Shown here: one piece after another, positions 51,971 to 57,925 of the stretch | Layout of the letters: every line of letters begins with the position of its first letter | Position numbering within the stretch: position 1 is the stretch's first letter | Source: a virus | IMG/VR virus record: IMGVR_UViG_3300046532_001566 | Coordinates: 52,086 to 116,085 of that record | Direction: 5' to 3' (one strand) | Length of the DNA stretch: 64,000 nucleotides | The notes under the pieces: model-generated | Seen by the model: the letters and a program-made list of their open reading frames with translations, nothing else | Databases searched by the model: none | Told to the model about the DNA's origin: nothing | Made by a program: the position numbers and the translations under genes

Positions 51971-52867
51971 ATGGATAATAAAAACCCACTTTCCGGGCAA
52001 ACTGCCAATCCTTTATCGGATTATTTTAGACAACCGGGTACATATATTACTTTGCCCTCTAATGGTAGGTTCTACAAAGATAAACTTACACTATCTGATA
52101 GCGGAGAATTAGCAATATATCCGATGACTGCTAAAGATGAATTACGTCTAAAGAATCCTGATGCTTTATTTAACGGCGAAGCAATGAGAGGTGTTATCAA
52201 AAGTTCAGTACCTGACATTGAAAACGTAGACGAAATACCTTCTGCAGATGTTGATATGATACTAGTTGCTATTAAGATGGCTAGTTACGGAGATGACATG
52301 CCAATGGACGTTTCTCATAACTGTAATGAAGCAGACGGCAAGGCTCAGCGAATAAATGTAAGTTTAGGACAGATAATCAGCACATTAAGACCCATTCCAG
52401 ATAAATTAGGAACCGTGGTTTTATCAACAGGATTAGAAGTACACTTGAGACCTTATAATTTAAAGGATCAAGGAAGATTACTTAAAATGCAATTTGATTC
52501 AATGCGTAACTTACAATCAAGTGAACAACGGGGCGAAAAAATTGAAGATCAAACAAATATTGCTAACGCTGGCTTTGCTTCATTAGTAGATTTGAGTCAA
52601 GATTTACTTACTGGTGCTATTTTAAAAGTAGTTATTCCAGGTAAGGATACTGATGAAGAACCAAAAGAAATTACAGACATTAAACATATTGCAGGTTGGT
52701 TAGCTAATTTAGATAGAGGATCATGCGATAGACTTGAAGATGAATTAAAATCATTCCAAGAATTTGGAATTATTAGAGAAATTACAGCAACATGTGATTA
52801 TTGTAAAGAAGATTACAAGACAGACATGTTATTTGATCCAACAAGTTTTTTTTCCGCAGGCTCTTGA
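51971..52867 (+). CDS. gp26: Baseplate hub assembly/tail chaperone (gp26-like)
   Basis: YITLPS.G, PMTAKDE, D.D.IL.AI..ASYG, C..C, and terminal SFF. Confidence 0.75.
   Translation: MDNKNPLSGQTANPLSDYFRQPGTYITLPSNGRFYKDKLTLSDSGELAIYPMTAKDELRLKNPDALFNGEAMRGVIKSSVPDIENVDEIPSADVDMILVAIKMASYGDDMPMDVSHNCNEADGKAQRINVSLGQIISTLRPIPDKLGTVVLSTGLEVHLRPYNLKDQGRLLKMQFDSMRNLQSSEQRGEKIEDQTNIANAGFASLVDLSQDLLTGAILKVVIPGKDTDEEPKEITDIKHIAGWLANLDRGSCDRLEDELKSFQEFGIIREITATCDYCKEDYKTDMLFDPTSFFSAGS
52844..52855 (+). promoter_or_regulatory. Candidate -1 ribosomal frameshift site (T TTT TTT)
   Basis: Eight T at 52846-52853 in X XXY YYZ register. The -1 frame is open into ORF 52864-53085. Confidence 0.6.
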
Positions 52868-53085
52868 GTCTAGGAACTGATGATGCTAAGATTACGAAGT
52901 TTATTGAAAGTTTCGAACAAGACTCAAGGGCCCTGATCCAAGATATATGCAACCTAAGTGTATGGAGCGACAATCCTATAAATGTAATATGGGACATGCC
53001 GTATACTGACCGATTAGTACTATCCGAAGTTGTTAAAGAAAAGATTGATACACTGTATGGTAAAAAAGGCATTGCTAGAAGATAA
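52864..53085 (+). CDS. gp51-like hub assembly protein, probably reached by frameshift
   Basis: IWDMPYTDR resembles the gp51 'e.m.p.eR' motif. TTG start with no clear SD. Confidence 0.6.
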   Translation: MSLGTDDAKITKFIESFEQDSRALIQDICNLSVWSDNPINVIWDMPYTDRLVLSEVVKEKIDTLYGKKGIARR

Positions 53086-53839
53086 CAACACAGGTAAAGT
53101 AGTCTCGCTAGGTTGTCGACAACTATTATCATACGATATTGCTAAATGGGACAAACAAGGATTTAAAGGATCTCCTCCAGAATTTAAACACAATTCAGAA
53201 TTATTAAATCATAATGCTACTAGTATTGAAATTACTAAGTACGGAGTCAGAGGAGATAAAATGGCTAGGCCATTGTTTACTAAACATTTCCTACCATATC
53301 ATAAAAAAACTAAATGGGCACAAACAGTTATAGATAAAACTCCAAGTGGTTTTATATCAAAAGATACTTGTCAAGTATCATTATTTGAGACTAATAGCTA
53401 TACTCAACTTCAATCTATATTTGGATGGACCAGTCAAGGTAACGACATAAAGCACGGAGCTACTGGTGAGAACGTTACTACAGCAGGTATTCAATTATGG
53501 AAATTAAAACAAAATTCATTATTAACTATAGGGACCACTGTACTAAAAGTCAAAGGACAACGAAGTCTATGTAGAGGGATGGTTAACACAATGAAAGAGC
53601 CTAAAAATCCTAATACTTTGTTTAAGGAATTAATGCAAAATTTAGTATGGCAAAGACATCTATGTGGGATTATGTGTGAAGTAATAACCCCTGGATGGAT
53701 AAGTTTAGATGATAACATTATTTCAGTTGATAATCCATTAGAAGATGAAGACTATCCTAACACAATGCCAATATCTAGGAGATGGGAACGTTTAAAGCAA
53801 TTAAACTCAGTAGATTTAATTAAGTTCTTATCAGAGTAG
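53030..53839 (+). CDS. MOSC-domain protein (YiiM-like), start uncertain (53030 or 53057)
   Basis: GVRGD, QVSL, GATGENVTT.G, IG..VLKV..QRSLC and GIMCEVI.PG.I...D.I motifs. Confidence 0.7.
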   Translation: MLKKRLIHCMVKKALLEDNNTGKVVSLGCRQLLSYDIAKWDKQGFKGSPPEFKHNSELLNHNATSIEITKYGVRGDKMARPLFTKHFLPYHKKTKWAQTVIDKTPSGFISKDTCQVSLFETNSYTQLQSIFGWTSQGNDIKHGATGENVTTAGIQLWKLKQNSLLTIGTTVLKVKGQRSLCRGMVNTMKEPKNPNTLFKELMQNLVWQRHLCGIMCEVITPGWISLDDNIISVDNPLEDEDYPNTMPISRRWERLKQLNSVDLIKFLSE

Positions 53840-53867
53840 TTCATTAACATAGTTAAGTATCGCTTAT

Positions 53868-53938
53868 AGGACGAATACTTCGTCCTTGAGTATCGTAGTG
53901 CAATGCACTAACTCACTCACATACATCTTTCGAAAGAT
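53868..53938. repeat. Cluster of three short palindromes
   Basis: AGGACGAA-TAC-TTCGTCCT (53868-86), TAGTGCA-A-TGCACTA (53896-910), ATCTTTCGAAAGAT (53925-38). Confidence 0.85.
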
Positions 53939-53994
53939 AATTAATGGTATTGTTAAGATACTGTAATTTTTTTTATATACATGAATAATAATTA

Positions 53995-54400
53995 TAGCTT
54001 GAGCTGGATGAGTATCCACACTTAGCCCCGTTTGGGGGCTAAGGTAAATGGTTTGTCTTGACCCAGACTCGTACCACACTTTGGTTAAAGAAACATATTA
54101 TGTTAGGGCGGTTACGCTGTACCCTTTTACTCTCGACTGTAATAACGCAAACAATAGAACCGAACCAAACCAATTCTATTATTATGTGGGTTGTAATAGT
54201 TCACCAGAGCCCACTCATTTTAGTAATAATATACATACACCAAGCCAGTTTCATACCGTTTGACTTACGTCCTGTAAAGGATAGTGGTGATATGTCTCTG
54301 CTACTGCTCAGAAATTCCGTCCCCTGCGACTCTATTAGTCCAGGTTTTATGGGTGCAATATAACCGGCTTGCACTTACCTATCAGTAGATAACTTGCCAA
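53995..54400 (-). ncRNA. Candidate large structured non-coding RNA
   Basis: About 400 nt, relatively GC-rich, no credible ORF, many stems. G-U pairs favour the minus strand. Boundaries are approximate. Confidence 0.6.
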
Positions 54401-54405
54401 TGTGT

Positions 54406-54918
54406 TTAAGAGGTTGTCTCTGTGAGCTGTGAGTATGTTTTTACTTGTTCAAAATTATATTCCCAAAAGGAATCGTATTCTGTTATGAGCCAATTTTTGT
54501 AGTTTATAGATCGTGTTGTATTAAATTTAAACTTGTCTTCGTATGCAACATAGCGACCCTTTCTATTAAATTTCATGCATAGTAATCCTAAGTCGCCTTC
54601 ATCCATGCAGTCTATAGTTTGATTTATCCAATCATCTAGTATCAGAACATCCGTATTTTGAAGTAACTGATGAAAAGGGAAATCTGCGTAAAATTTACAT
54701 TCAAAAACCAATAAAGGAAAACTAGGTCCGGGAATGATATCTCCTTTAAAGCCTCTAATCTGTTCTTCACTTAGAAAACTTTTGCGGACATTATTCATGC
54801 CTCCAACAAACGCTCCCGAGTTAGGAACTCGTACAAAACTCTCATTGTAGATTAGAGAGAGGTGTGTTGCAACCTCTCTCTCAAACCCAGACCCTTTTGT
54901 TTTACTTTTACTTGGCAT
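54406..54918 (-). CDS. PD-(D/E)xK nuclease, Holliday-junction-resolvase-like
   Basis: SKTKGSGFERE, GDI and FECK motifs. Confidence 0.8.
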   Translation of the reverse strand: MPSKSKTKGSGFEREVATHLSLIYNESFVRVPNSGAFVGGMNNVRKSFLSEEQIRGFKGDIIPGPSFPLLVFECKFYADFPFHQLLQNTDVLILDDWINQTIDCMDEGDLGLLCMKFNRKGRYVAYEDKFKFNTTRSINYKNWLITEYDSFWEYNFEQVKTYSQLTETTS

Positions 54919-55125
54919 TTAAAGAGCGTTTTTTTCTTCTGTAATCTCTTTACGTCTTTCTTTAAGAGCTACTGCAATCGCTTGAAGAGCCTTACGAGCT
55001 CGTGTTGCACTAGCCTTAACACCTTTTTCTACAAACTTTCTGTTTTCTGCAATATATACATCCATCTGTTCCATCATAGCTAGATGGTTGGCTGAATCTC
55101 TTGGATCTTTATTTTCGGTAGTCAT
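54919..55125 (-). CDS. Histone H1-like (Hc1-type) small basic protein
   Basis: KGVKASATRARKAL....KERRKEI motif. Confidence 0.7.
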   Translation of the reverse strand: MTTENKDPRDSANHLAMMEQMDVYIAENRKFVEKGVKASATRARKALQAIAVALKERRKEITEEKNAL

Positions 55126-55136
55126 ATTATATCTCC

Positions 55137-56906
55137 TTAAAGTACAATTTCTGTTGAGTGATCAAGCATAGTAAAACCATTTTGCTTAACCACCATTAAC
55201 ACGTTATTAACGCGGCCAGCGAGTTCGTCTCGATGGCTAATTAGGAATACGTTACGATTCATTTCACGGCCCATTTTCTTTAAGACTGCCATTGATAATT
55301 CGATACCAACTTGGTCCATGCCTGAGTCTACTAATTCATCAATAAACAACAAATTCATAGGCTCTGTAAAACTTTCGTATACGTCTCTAAAACTCCAACT
55401 TAGTGCTAGGATTAACCTATTACGTTCTCCTCTACTCAAATTATCAAAATCAAACGATTGTCCTAATTGAGTAATGTCGACCTCTAAGTCACTTTTAAAA
55501 ATCACTTCATGTGGTAGTTGTAACTTATCTAAGTAATACCCTAGTCTGTGATTCAAATATGCTAAATTCTGCTCAATAATGCGTTTACGGACAAATGAGT
55601 CCTTATTAGTTAACAATTTGAGCAAAAATTCCTGGTGTTCTTGCAGTCTAGTGTACTGATTCATGTTATCCCATGAAATTTCTGCAAGGGCAGTAGTCTC
55701 AAGTGCTTCAATTTGCTCTTGATAAGGATCTGCCTCTCCTTCCTTTGCAATTAAAGAACCTTTTAAATTTTCTAGGTTACTCTGGTGCTTAATTGCATCT
55801 TCAATACTAGAATATTTTGTATGCGGACGTTCGCCCATATCACCTATTTCTCGTACTGCAATATCTGCTTGTGCAAGTAATCCGTGTTCTTCTTGCAATG
55901 CTGTTTTAATTTGATCTAATAAATTATTAGCATTAGTTATTAAAATTTCTTGTTTATCGTCATGCAATTCTTGACCACATGTATGACACTTGTGATCCTG
56001 TAACACTACTAAATTGGATTCAGAAATTTTAAAAGATTCTTTTAATTTATTAATATTACTTTGTCTATTGGCTAATTCTTTGTTAGCTAATTTTAAAAGA
56101 TTTTCGTTTTCTTTAAAAGCATCTAAAGCACGATGTGATTCAAGTTCAGCATTAATATCAGTAGCTTCTAGTTCAGTAACACCTGCCAATATATTAGTCA
56201 AGTCTTCGTCTTTTTTCTTTGCCCAGGTCCTGCTACGTCTTTTTAAATCATCAATAGTTTGCTTTACCCTAGAATTACTTTCTTCTAATGCACGATGCCT
56301 TGATTCTTCATCTTTAACTAGTTCTTTAGTATTACGAATATTTTCTTTAAGAATATCTGCTTTTTCACTAAGCTGAGTAATTCCTAATAGTTCCTCAATA
56401 ATTTCTCTTTGATCATTAGCTCGCAATGCTAAAAAAGGTTGTGTATAAGTGTTCAACGCAACAAGGTGTTTGAACATTTCTTTACCCATACCAATAAGTC
56501 TATCTATTTCTTTTTGTGTGACTCTGTTTTCGCCTTGACCTTCATCTGTTGGCTCGCCTACTTGATTATTATTAATATAAAAATGTAATACATTAGGACT
56601 GCGACCACGTTCAATTTTAAACTTTTCGCCGTTCTTTTCAAATTCTAATGTAACAAGCATATTCTTGCCATTAGTCTTGTTAATTAAATTGTGTTTGCGG
56701 ATTGTAGTTAATGCATCACCATACAATGCAAAAGACAATGCATTAACAATAGTTGTTTTACCAACACCATTACGAGCACCATCACCGCCTAAATCTAAAT
56801 TATTTCCTAACACAAGTGTAAGTCCGTCTGCATTTAGATTTAATGCTTGGGTAACATTTCCAACACTCATAAAATTTCTAATGGTAATGTTTTTAAAAAC
56901 AATCAT
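55137..56906 (-). CDS. gp46: Recombination endonuclease ATPase subunit (gp46/SbcC/Rad50)
   Basis: NFMS.GN, NGVGKTT, Zn hook CHTCGQ, LSRGE, FIDE and ISH motifs. Confidence 0.95.
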   Translation of the reverse strand: MIVFKNITIRNFMSVGNVTQALNLNADGLTLVLGNNLDLGGDGARNGVGKTTIVNALSFALYGDALTTIRKHNLINKTNGKNMLVTLEFEKNGEKFKIERGRSPNVLHFYINNNQVGEPTDEGQGENRVTQKEIDRLIGMGKEMFKHLVALNTYTQPFLALRANDQREIIEELLGITQLSEKADILKENIRNTKELVKDEESRHRALEESNSRVKQTIDDLKRRSRTWAKKKDEDLTNILAGVTELEATDINAELESHRALDAFKENENLLKLANKELANRQSNINKLKESFKISESNLVVLQDHKCHTCGQELHDDKQEILITNANNLLDQIKTALQEEHGLLAQADIAVREIGDMGERPHTKYSSIEDAIKHQSNLENLKGSLIAKEGEADPYQEQIEALETTALAEISWDNMNQYTRLQEHQEFLLKLLTNKDSFVRKRIIEQNLAYLNHRLGYYLDKLQLPHEVIFKSDLEVDITQLGQSFDFDNLSRGERNRLILALSWSFRDVYESFTEPMNLLFIDELVDSGMDQVGIELSMAVLKKMGREMNRNVFLISHRDELAGRVNNVLMVVKQNGFTMLDHSTEIVL

Positions 56907-57925
56907 TTATTCAATCCTTGATAAATTTCAGTTAACAGACGTTTATCTATCTGGGCAGAATCAATTGACTGAATCTGATTTAAAACAATAGCATCAACAC
57001 TTTCAAACGTAATCTCTCCACCTTCCCATTCTTTAGAATGTTCTTCCTTAGCATTTGGAATAAGAGACAATTCACGCATTCCGTATTCCTCATACCATTT
57101 TTCCTTGATGTAAGAAGCCTCTTCAAAGCTAATGTCTACATCAATAGTAACACGAGCAAATGTTGTATGATCAAACAAATGTTCATGATTATCAATAGCA
57201 TGTGTTAGTGACATAGTTCTAAATTTAGGAGCGTCAGGCCAGGTCCTAAATTCGTAATCCTTACCATACGGCAGTATCATCATGCCCCTTTCATCATCAC
57301 CAGCGTCGGCAAAGTTATGAGGAAATGCATTACCCATATAAACAATATTGCCTCTGCGTTGACGTTTATGGAAGTGACCGCTAAACACTAGTTCCTGATT
57401 AGGAAAATGTCCTTCGTTTAGTCCGCCGTGGTCCGGCATCTCTACCATTGCATTCATCTTAAAACGAGGCAGTTCAAAGTGGCCAAATATGTAACGAGAC
57501 TCGATATTTCTCATATCGGTCCATTCTTCTCCTACTAACCAAGGAACAATAGTCATGTCACCTATTGTAGTGATATCGTTAATAATTTGTAAATTAGGCA
57601 AATAATCACCAAAAGGTAAAGAGTTAATTTCTCGTTTTTCTCTATAAGCTAAATCATGATTACCCATAATAGCATAAACTTTTTCAAAGCTATTGCTAAG
57701 ATATTCTAAATTTGTTGTTGTATAGTTAAGAGTACTGACATTAATATTACTGCGACTATTATGCCAATCACCAAGGAATATACAAGTTTCGCACCCCTCT
57801 TTATGGGCCTGTTCTACAAACCAATGAATGAAGTTTGTACAGTCGTCATTGTGGGCTCTACTATTATTTCGTAGTCCAAAATGAATGTCAGTAAAGCATG
57901 CCGCTTTTTTAAAAGGTTGTGTCAT
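56903..57925 (-). CDS. gp47: Recombination endonuclease nuclease subunit (gp47/SbcD/Mre11)
   Basis: DIHFG, GDW, GNHD, GHFE and SGHFH motifs. Confidence 0.95.
   Translation of the reverse strand: MTQPFKKAACFTDIHFGLRNNSRAHNDDCTNFIHWFVEQAHKEGCETCIFLGDWHNSRSNINVSTLNYTTTNLEYLSNSFEKVYAIMGNHDLAYREKREINSLPFGDYLPNLQIINDITTIGDMTIVPWLVGEEWTDMRNIESRYIFGHFELPRFKMNAMVEMPDHGGLNEGHFPNQELVFSGHFHKRQRRGNIVYMGNAFPHNFADAGDDERGMMILPYGKDYEFRTWPDAPKFRTMSLTHAIDNHEHLFDHTTFARVTIDVDISFEEASYIKEKWYEEYGMRELSLIPNAKEEHSKEWEGGEITFESVDAIVLNQIQSIDSAQIDKRLLTEIYQGLNK

Follow-up and report, generated by a model that had tools for sequence, protein, structure and literature searches.

ROOL and GOLLD are large ornate RNAs of phages and prophages. 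Other structured RNAs, such as the HEARO/OMEGA RNAs and the IS110 bridge RNAs, lie beside the nuclease or recombinase that they guide, and still others, such as ColE1 RNA II and the transcripts of the T4 oriF and oriG R-loops, form hybrids at replication origins. The described RNA closest to the one analysed here is the Polynucleobacter-1 motif, described in 2010 (Weinberg et al. 2010, PMC2864571), which is found mostly downstream of GOS11034- or PSSM2_218-like genes, whose 3' half is not always detected and which was, as of 2010, absent from purified phages (Weinberg et al. 2010, supplement, PMC2864571). Furthermore, the flanks printed in the Stockholm file of 2010 already hold, unannotated, the 3' domain that we describe below as module B (Weinberg et al. 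2010).

We analysed a stretch of 64,000 nucleotides from an IMG/VR virus record (hereafter the window), in which a first-pass annotation had proposed a large ornate non-coding RNA on the minus strand, at the end of a gp55-gp47-gp46-H1-like-resolvase operon. Covariation and a match to Rfam family RF01718 (Polynucleobacter-1) uphold this proposal. Like most of the examples of 2010, the RNA of the window lies downstream of a small phage-like gene. However, the catalogued motif has 141 positions whereas the RNA of the window runs about 240 nt further, and this copy is carried by the contig of a T4-like phage, between the gp46/gp47 genes and the baseplate genes. The evidence says that the Rfam entry covers merely the first third of an RNA of about 400 nt.

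Results

Genomic setting of the RNA

The IMG/VR record to which the window belongs is 116 kb long, with an estimated completeness of 35%, and the public sequencing runs that contain the sequence are seawater metagenomes; the source is an uncultured marine T4-like phage. On the minus strand, genes encoding a gp47-like phosphoesterase (56903-57925), a gp46-like SMC/AAA ATPase (55137-56906), the histone-H1-like protein Hc1 (54919-55125) and a PDDEXK_15 nuclease (54406-54918) form a row, the last gene being directly upstream of the RNA. The nuclease resembles D14 of T5, a putative resolvase, and its relatives in jumbo phages carry a D14-like or RusA-like resolvase annotation. A T4_baseplate gene on the plus strand (51971-52867) converges on this row and a MOSC-domain gene, also on the plus strand (53030-53839), lies between it and the RNA. 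At the syntenic locus L098, the baseplate gene comes directly after the RNA.

The gap at the junction of these two converging gene sets (53840-54405, 566 nt) is, as had been noticed, the longest non-coding stretch of the window, i.e. the longest one without ORFs of at least 110 aa, the runner-up having 365 nt. It had also been called relatively GC-rich, which is true for the RNA part (41.9% G+C versus 36.6% for the whole window and 28.8% for the tail at 53840-53992). This AT-rich tail contains palindromes (for instance AGGACGAAGTATTCGTCCT near 53866-53884) and is poorly kept among close relatives, with the exception of its last 50 nt beside the MOSC-domain gene.

A 5' domain of the Polynucleobacter-1 family

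The 5' domain of the RNA (module A; 54233-54379, minus strand, 147 nt) matches RF01718 over the whole model (positions 1-141 of 141) with 95.8 bits for a gathering score of 37 and an E-value of 3e-21 (cmscan). It is the sole Rfam match in the entire window. The consensus helices are kept, the cmscan alignment flagging just two non-standard pairs, and the stems GTGCAA/TTGCAC and TCCT-TTAC-AGGA that had been listed from the letters are helices of this model. The RNA had been proposed to belong to a known class, such as ROOL or GOLLD, or to a new one. Neither ROOL (RF03087) nor GOLLD (RF01998) matches the gap at the gathering score or even at E-values up to 10, so that membership of these classes is not borne out; the 5' 147 nt belong to a known family, RF01718, and the 3' domain to none in Rfam. 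No Rfam match to group I or group II introns, RNase P RNA or tmRNA was obtained in the gap, and ARAGORN found no tRNA or tmRNA. Rows for CRISPR-DR63 and psbNH that appeared in the gap in the scan to an E-value of 10 were far under the cut-offs and were taken as chance.

Immediately 5' of the RF01718 match, the sequence can form a leader hairpin, UAUC-UACU-GAUA (54380-54391, minus strand). Since a word of the (C)ACUAC type occupies the leader position in both phage and bacterial copies, the RNA probably begins upstream of the Rfam model.

A pseudoknotted 3' domain

The 3' domain (module B), delimited by nhmmer and covariation, has about 210 nt (54011-54221, minus strand), followed by a tail to about 53993. 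It begins with a conserved AAAAUGA, and no Rfam family matches it in the window or in 57 related loci. Its pairing was evaluated on 50 diverse copies aligned with MAFFT by sequence only, i.e. without fitting to a structure, by counting 27 named pairs. As named, 92.3% of the cells hold standard pairs, versus 31-52% when the 3' partner is slid by one to three columns; cells changed on both sides number 218 versus 21-62 and the covariation score is 0.463 versus 0.07-0.14, a value reached by none of 500 shuffles. Helices P1, P1a, P4 and P7 covary in this alignment. The covariation among homologues that had been suggested as a check is therefore present. Moreover, G-U cells (109) outnumber A-C cells (20), which indicates that the molecule is an RNA read from the minus strand of the window; the complementary strand would pair in 85.6% of the cells. 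Thermodynamic stability is unremarkable (MFE z of -1.47, 10 of 100 shuffles folding equally well) and would by itself be compatible with chance, but covariation does show a real structure. RNAalifold on the MAFFT alignments gave the obvious stems only, and P2, P3 and P5 were judged sequence by sequence.

All elements are given here on the minus strand, from 5' to 3'. P1 (GUGGG/CCCAC) encloses a short helix, P1a (54186-54214), both being supported by covariation: 96% and 93% of their cells are paired in the 50-copy alignment, with changes on both sides in six of eight pairs, and in P1 itself both sides change in four of five pairs across relatives. P2 is a long hairpin, AAUAAUAGAAUUG ... CGGUUCUAUUGUU (54150-54183), identified by folding of homologues; all 50 homologues fold the corresponding segment (AATAGAATTG/CGGTTCTATT) into one hairpin, with 13 bp and a z of -3.1 on average. 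It is followed by the 5' strand of a pseudoknot, GCGUUAU (54142-54148), whose CGUU is invariant in all 50 copies. Then comes a three-way junction (54088-54134) made of P3 (GAGA/UCUU), an A-rich joiner GUAAAA, P4 (AGGG/CCCU) and the P5 hairpin (AACAU/AUGUU). The 3' strand of the pseudoknot, GUAAC-CGC (54108-54115), is located in the loop of P4, and GGGTACAGCGTAACCGCCC corresponds to P4 with this loop. Across the family, GCGUUN faces an NAAC-CGC loop of P4 and both are mostly invariant; the position beside the invariant CGUU/AAC-CG pairs is GC in 28 copies, UA in eight, AU in seven and GU in five. P3 is weak in the window (4 bp, absent from the MFE fold), and other copies carry the compensatory forms GAAC/GUUC, AGCG/CGCU and AGUA/UACU. 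The P5 hairpin is predicted in 35 of 50 copies and the closing helix P3 in 30 of 50. P7, a hairpin CUUAGCCCC-CAAAC-GGGGCUAAG (CTTAGCCCC/GGGGCTAAG; 54021-54043), is supported by covariation with 84% of cells paired and with UUAGCC/GGCUAA, UUCACCC/GGGUGAA, UUCGCCC/GGGCGAA and CUGAGCC/GGCUCAG among the copies.

Hence, most of the stems read from the letters proved real: GTGCAA/TTGCAC and TCCT-TTAC-AGGA in module A, and GTGGG/CCCAC (P1), GGGTACAGCGTAACCGCCC (P4 with its pseudoknot loop), AATAGAATTG/CGGTTCTATT (P2) and CTTAGCCCC/GGGGCTAAG (P7) in module B. By contrast, the long-range pairing of GAGTCTGG with CCAGCTC is unsupported, both words lying at equivalent places of two tandem repeat units. 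A helix closing the molecule between its 5' and 3' ends was also considered, with the leader UAUCUAC (54391-54385) facing GUGGAUA (54019-54013) over 7 bp, extended to 10 bp in L002 and L006. It was rejected: own versus cross pairing is not significant (p 0.32, 21 loci) and the leader can also form a local hairpin.

Among five close relatives, the proportion of invariant columns is 0.81-0.93 throughout modules A and B and 0.29-0.43 just past the second of the two boxes described below, conservation dropping after about 54005. Four short ORFs are present in the gap, with 101 and 71 aa on the plus strand and 71 and 57 aa on the minus strand. None is conserved: each is broken by one to four stops or split in L002, L003, L006 and further relatives. 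The protein-level conservation that would have spoken against a non-coding RNA is thus absent, even among close relatives.

Two tandem units at the 3' end

The first-pass annotation had pointed to a word repeated twice in the gap. We confirmed this word, AAGTGTGG (AAGUGUGG in the RNA), at 54081-54074 and 54023-54016, with one further occurrence in the 64 kb, and found that its two copies (boxes 1 and 2) head tandem units. Unit 1 (54050-54081, minus strand) consists of box 1 AAGUGUGG and the P6 hairpin GUCU-GGGUCA-AGAC (54068-54055). Unit 2 (53993-54023, minus strand) consists of box 2, which overlaps the 3' strand of P7, and the tail AUACUCAUCCAGCUCAAG, and probably contains the 3' end of the RNA. 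In the window, the two units align over 26 columns with one gap (p 0.02 for the local score). They resemble each other over 13-39 columns in 24 of 50 lineages (p<0.05 in each), the sequences being lineage-specific, for instance GUGACUGC-GAACUCACCACAG and GUGACUGCUCAUCU-ACCACAG in one lineage, or GUGUGA-AGAACUCAGCGAAAUACCC and GUGUGAUUGAAUCU-AGCGAAAUAUCC in another. The exact word common to both boxes has 3 to 9 nt across the family and often just 4-5 nt. Since the likeness reaches past the boxes, each of these stands at the head of a longer unit, the two tandem units co-evolve and the RNA extends as far as about 53993. In one lineage (3' tails of L107, L053, L170, L071, L082, L043 and L117), unit 2 holds a palindrome, (A)UCUAGAUGA, which could pair between two molecules and is absent from the clade of the window.

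Both boxes find complementary sequence in the segment that separates P6 from P7. For the window, this means possible pairing of ACCAU (54052-54048) with the GUGGU of box 1, and of AUUUAC with the GUGGAU of box 2 if one U bulges out. The resulting extension of P7 covaries elsewhere (UUUACA/UGUGAA, UUUGCA/UGCGA, GUCGUG/UGCGAC, GGUCAUG/UGUGACU). Such partners inside the RNA point to an internal constraint, and not to a reader outside the molecule, as the origin of the twin words. In a permutation test, boxes of the same lineage suit the strand 5' of P7 better than boxes of other lineages do (p<0.0002), but this result is confounded by P6: the box 1 arm of the test also spans the 5' strand of this hairpin, and its 3' strand lies within the strand 5' of P7. 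Because of this confounding, we infer the internal partner rather than take it as demonstrated.

Pairing of the boxes with two CACUA words, located in the leader and in module A, was rejected since the boxes of L146 and L079 became UACGA, CACUA being unchanged. Similarly, a target of the twin units was sought in the nearby DNA: 33 shared 11-mers were found for about 20 expected, none of them containing the box words.

Transcription

Neither a sigma-70-like excess nor a TATAAATA box (T4 late promoter) was found near the RNA, and no intrinsic terminator was found for it. Six metatranscriptome runs contain about half the words of 53840-54920. In four of these runs, contigs identical to the window, found in runs from two studies, bridge the nuclease gene and module A (54241-54598, 54256-54834 and 54339-54732), and a variant contig reaches 54149. 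This evidence consists of contigs only and could include DNA; none covers 53602-54148, which is not taken as absence. The contigs fit a read-through from the nuclease gene into the RNA. Hence, the suggested co-transcription at the end of the gp47-gp46-H1-like-nuclease row fits these data, the RNA having no promoter or terminator of its own found and contigs of four RNA libraries bridging gene and RNA. One of the runs (X19) contains a variant strain with several substitutions and with eight additional bases (ATGTGTTT) after 54399, past the nuclease stop codon and ahead of the RNA.

Distribution in phages

As searched by nhmmer, module B follows the PDDEXK gene in 24-25 of the 49 IMG/VR loci that hold a relative of this gene, about half of the loci being without it within 800 nt. 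RF01718 is present in only the five closest of the PDDEXK-linked module B loci. Independently of any gene, a scan of viral contigs with a 14-base core, GGTACNGCNNAACCGCC, yielded 120 loci, 73 of them with module B, and ten of these pattern-found loci carry both modules, at a spacing of 16-19 nt (eight loci) or 54-55 nt (two loci). Altogether, module B is found in 100 viral loci and the RF01718 motif in only 15 of those. Where present, module A is always directly 5' of module B and on the same strand, with a gap between the two envelopes of 16-19 nt in 13 of the 15 phage loci, 54-55 nt in the two others and 47-124 nt in bacteria.

Most phage copies of module B carry a different 5' module in place of module A. 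In loci devoid of RF01718 (L080, L075, L043, L117, L014 and others), a conserved 5' module GGUCGRGG...CUCGACUCACC... was observed, often ending in a GGUUUGACAAACC hairpin. Given these alternative conserved 5' modules upstream of module B, the RNA seems modular, and modules A and B may be separable units. Furthermore, another conserved non-coding stretch (...CACUACCCUCACGCGAGAGGAUGCC...) stands some 600-800 nt past the stop codon of the PDDEXK gene in loci L016-L021. It recalls the variant group of the 2010 Polynucleobacter-1 alignment, is not called by Rfam at its gathering score and may be more distantly related to the Polynucleobacter-1 phage RNA.

The gene upstream of the RNA also varies. 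At locus L098, gp47, gp46 and Hc1 genes are followed by a gene encoding a 142-aa SegE-like GIY-YIG nuclease, then by the RNA (modules A and B) and the converging T4_baseplate gene. Since this is the same locus with GIY-YIG replacing PDDEXK, the RNA goes with the locus and not with one nuclease. When the upstream proteins of ten pattern-found loci were compared, seven proved to belong to this GIY-YIG family, and in some loci an extra ORF separates the nuclease gene from the RNA. Co-occurrence with Hc1 is not strict either, 19 RNA-bearing PDDEXK loci lacking this gene. Many deposited cyanophage genomes give the 142-aa SegE-like GIY-YIG gene the name 'NAD synthetase'.

Blastn of the gap and of the gaps of two relatives gave no match among 50,697 records of isolated phages. 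Among isolates, Methylophilales phage Melnitz and cyanophage S-SSM4 are the closest at the protein level; nhmmer found no module B behind their GIY-YIG gene, and in S-SSM4 (L172) this slot holds a tRNA-Arg gene. Neither a DUF6641 gene, frequent beside the bacterial copies described below, nor a SegE-like GIY-YIG gene was found in the 116-kb fragment of the window's phage, which proves nothing since this fragment represents about 35% of the genome.

Bacterial copies

A search with a 19-base core pattern retrieved 24 bacterial loci, of which 18 carry module B. They belong mostly to freshwater Burkholderiales and Rhodocyclales and include complete chromosomes. The RF01718 motif lies a short way upstream on the same strand in 16 of these 18 loci. 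Of seven loci tested, six have a DUF6641 gene upstream, on the opposite strand; one member of this family shows a faint likeness to Prim-Pol (E 0.006, below the cut-off). One locus also has a tyrosine integrase gene in its vicinity, and a different one a tRNA gene. In the order of Limnohabitans sp. DCL3, RF01718 exceeds the family cut-off in four of 151 sampled genomes. Strain DCL3 (G001, L180) itself carries two copies, at C1:2845677-2845812 and C1:1314328-1314441, with 94.6 and 53 bits. This patchy distribution and the DUF6641 and integrase neighbours indicate that the RNA belongs to mobile elements as an accessory, and that it has no housekeeping role. Its presence on patchy islands of cultivable Limnohabitans, Dechloromonas and Polynucleobacter makes it experimentally reachable; Limnohabitans sp. 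DCL3, Dechloromonas sp. ZS-1 and Polynucleobacter asymbioticus QLW-P1DMWA-1 all have the form with both modules.

Discussion

We are highly confident that the gap contains a real structured RNA of this family. Very probably, it is a structured non-coding RNA of about 400 nt, read from the minus strand (from about 54391 to about 53993), composed of module A and the pseudoknotted module B. The most likely source of the transcript would be read-through from the gp47-gp46-Hc1-PDDEXK nuclease row. The RNA would act in trans as a folded RNA of mobile elements, common to T4-like phages of aquatic habitats and to small islands in freshwater Betaproteobacteria. In this fold, the pseudoknot between GCGUUAU and the P4 loop would stack on the three-way junction P3-P4-P5 with its A-rich joiner, and this near-invariant core would be the working site. 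The twin units, for their part, may be held alike because each pairs with the neighbouring half of the P6-P7 strand.

A more modest role would be that of a cis-acting 3' untranslated structure only, which ends the mRNA of the nuclease row or protects it from 3' exonucleases. Such a role would agree with the position of the RNA, which immediately follows the final gene of the row and lies where two gene sets converge, with the apparent lack of a promoter and an intrinsic terminator of its own and with the contigs that bridge gene and RNA. However, the bacterial copies are free-standing, their nearest upstream gene being DUF6641 on the opposite strand, and in phages the upstream gene varies by locus (PDDEXK, GIY-YIG, or an extra ORF in between). 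In addition, about 400 nt with an invariant pseudoknot core far exceed what protection needs. The size, the invariant pseudoknot with its A-rich joiner and the free-standing bacterial form thus argue for a trans-acting RNA and not for a mere mRNA end, and we consider a purely cis-acting structure improbable. It is still less probable that the RNA serves as a primer or origin RNA that forms a lasting hybrid in the AT-rich palindromic tract at 53840-53992, despite the G+C content of 28.8% of this tract and the proximity of an integrase and of DUF6641 to bacterial copies: even close relatives keep little of the tract, a high A+T content is usual between the genes of this phage, nothing connects the conserved pseudoknot with priming and the Prim-Pol hint is sub-threshold. 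Like ColE1 RNA II and the T4 origin transcripts, this RNA is a structured transcript running into an AT-rich tract, but it has no homology with them and the downstream tract of the window is not conserved.

An element acting as DNA, i.e. a cruciform or a protein site for recombination or packaging, could be suspected from the adjoining recombination genes and from the many inverted repeats. Nevertheless, the excess of G-U over A-C cells (109 versus 20) and the poorer pairing of the complementary strand (85.6% versus 92.3%) are those of an RNA. A pseudoknot and a three-way junction with an invariant single-stranded joiner are likewise RNA-like features; in addition, the Rfam model matched by the 5' domain was built as RNA, and RNA libraries contain the region. 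A DNA-level element is therefore hardly credible. Membership of ROOL or GOLLD, which the size, the phage origin and the tRNA gene occupying the slot in cyanophage S-SSM4 could recall, is refuted by the lack of any match to either family in the window (E up to 10) and in 57 related loci, and retains next to no probability. What remains is a likeness: all are large intricate phage RNAs, but that of the window is shorter (about 400 nt) and matches them neither in sequence nor in structure. Finally, the short ORFs do exist in the window, but a real gene among them is refuted as well, with a probability close to nil, each being broken or split in L002, L003, L006 and others, and the pairs covarying in the manner of an RNA.

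As for the activity of this trans-acting RNA, it is a tentative possibility that it works as a particle binding or sequestering a protein. By analogy with ROOL and GOLLD, an RNA-only assembly may be envisaged but appears unlikely, and a ribozyme or a ligand sensor appears just as unlikely. The likeness to HEARO/OMEGA and IS110 bridge RNAs lies in the small nuclease gene beside the RNA in phages, in the tyrosine integrase at one bacterial locus and in the short, fast-changing words that the family carries. However, no Rfam match links them, the neighbouring nuclease belongs to two unrelated folds or is separated from the RNA by a gene, the changing words have complementary partners inside the RNA and no nearby target was found.

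Conserved RNAs this large and complex have repeatedly proved to be ribozymes, riboswitches or RNA assemblies. As a long shot, the pseudoknotted 3' domain could be the core of a new class of RNA machine common to lytic T4-like phages and integrative islands. Such a machine might be catalytic, as a ribozyme, it might form an RNA-only assembly, or it might serve as a guide, using its two co-evolving units to read two copies of a nucleic-acid target in DNA transactions. If this were true, mobile elements would have a nuclease or recombinase pathway that relies on this RNA.

Conclusions

New in this work are the PDDEXK context, the nuclease swap at one locus, the boxes that head longer tandem units and the partners of the boxes within the RNA. 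Polynucleobacter-1 has been an orphan Rfam entry since 2010, and its uncatalogued 3' domain is the widespread part of the RNA in aquatic T4-like phages. A corrected family model would improve the annotation of phages and metagenomes. Moreover, the phages retain this 3' domain at one locus where the nuclease gene beside it is exchanged.
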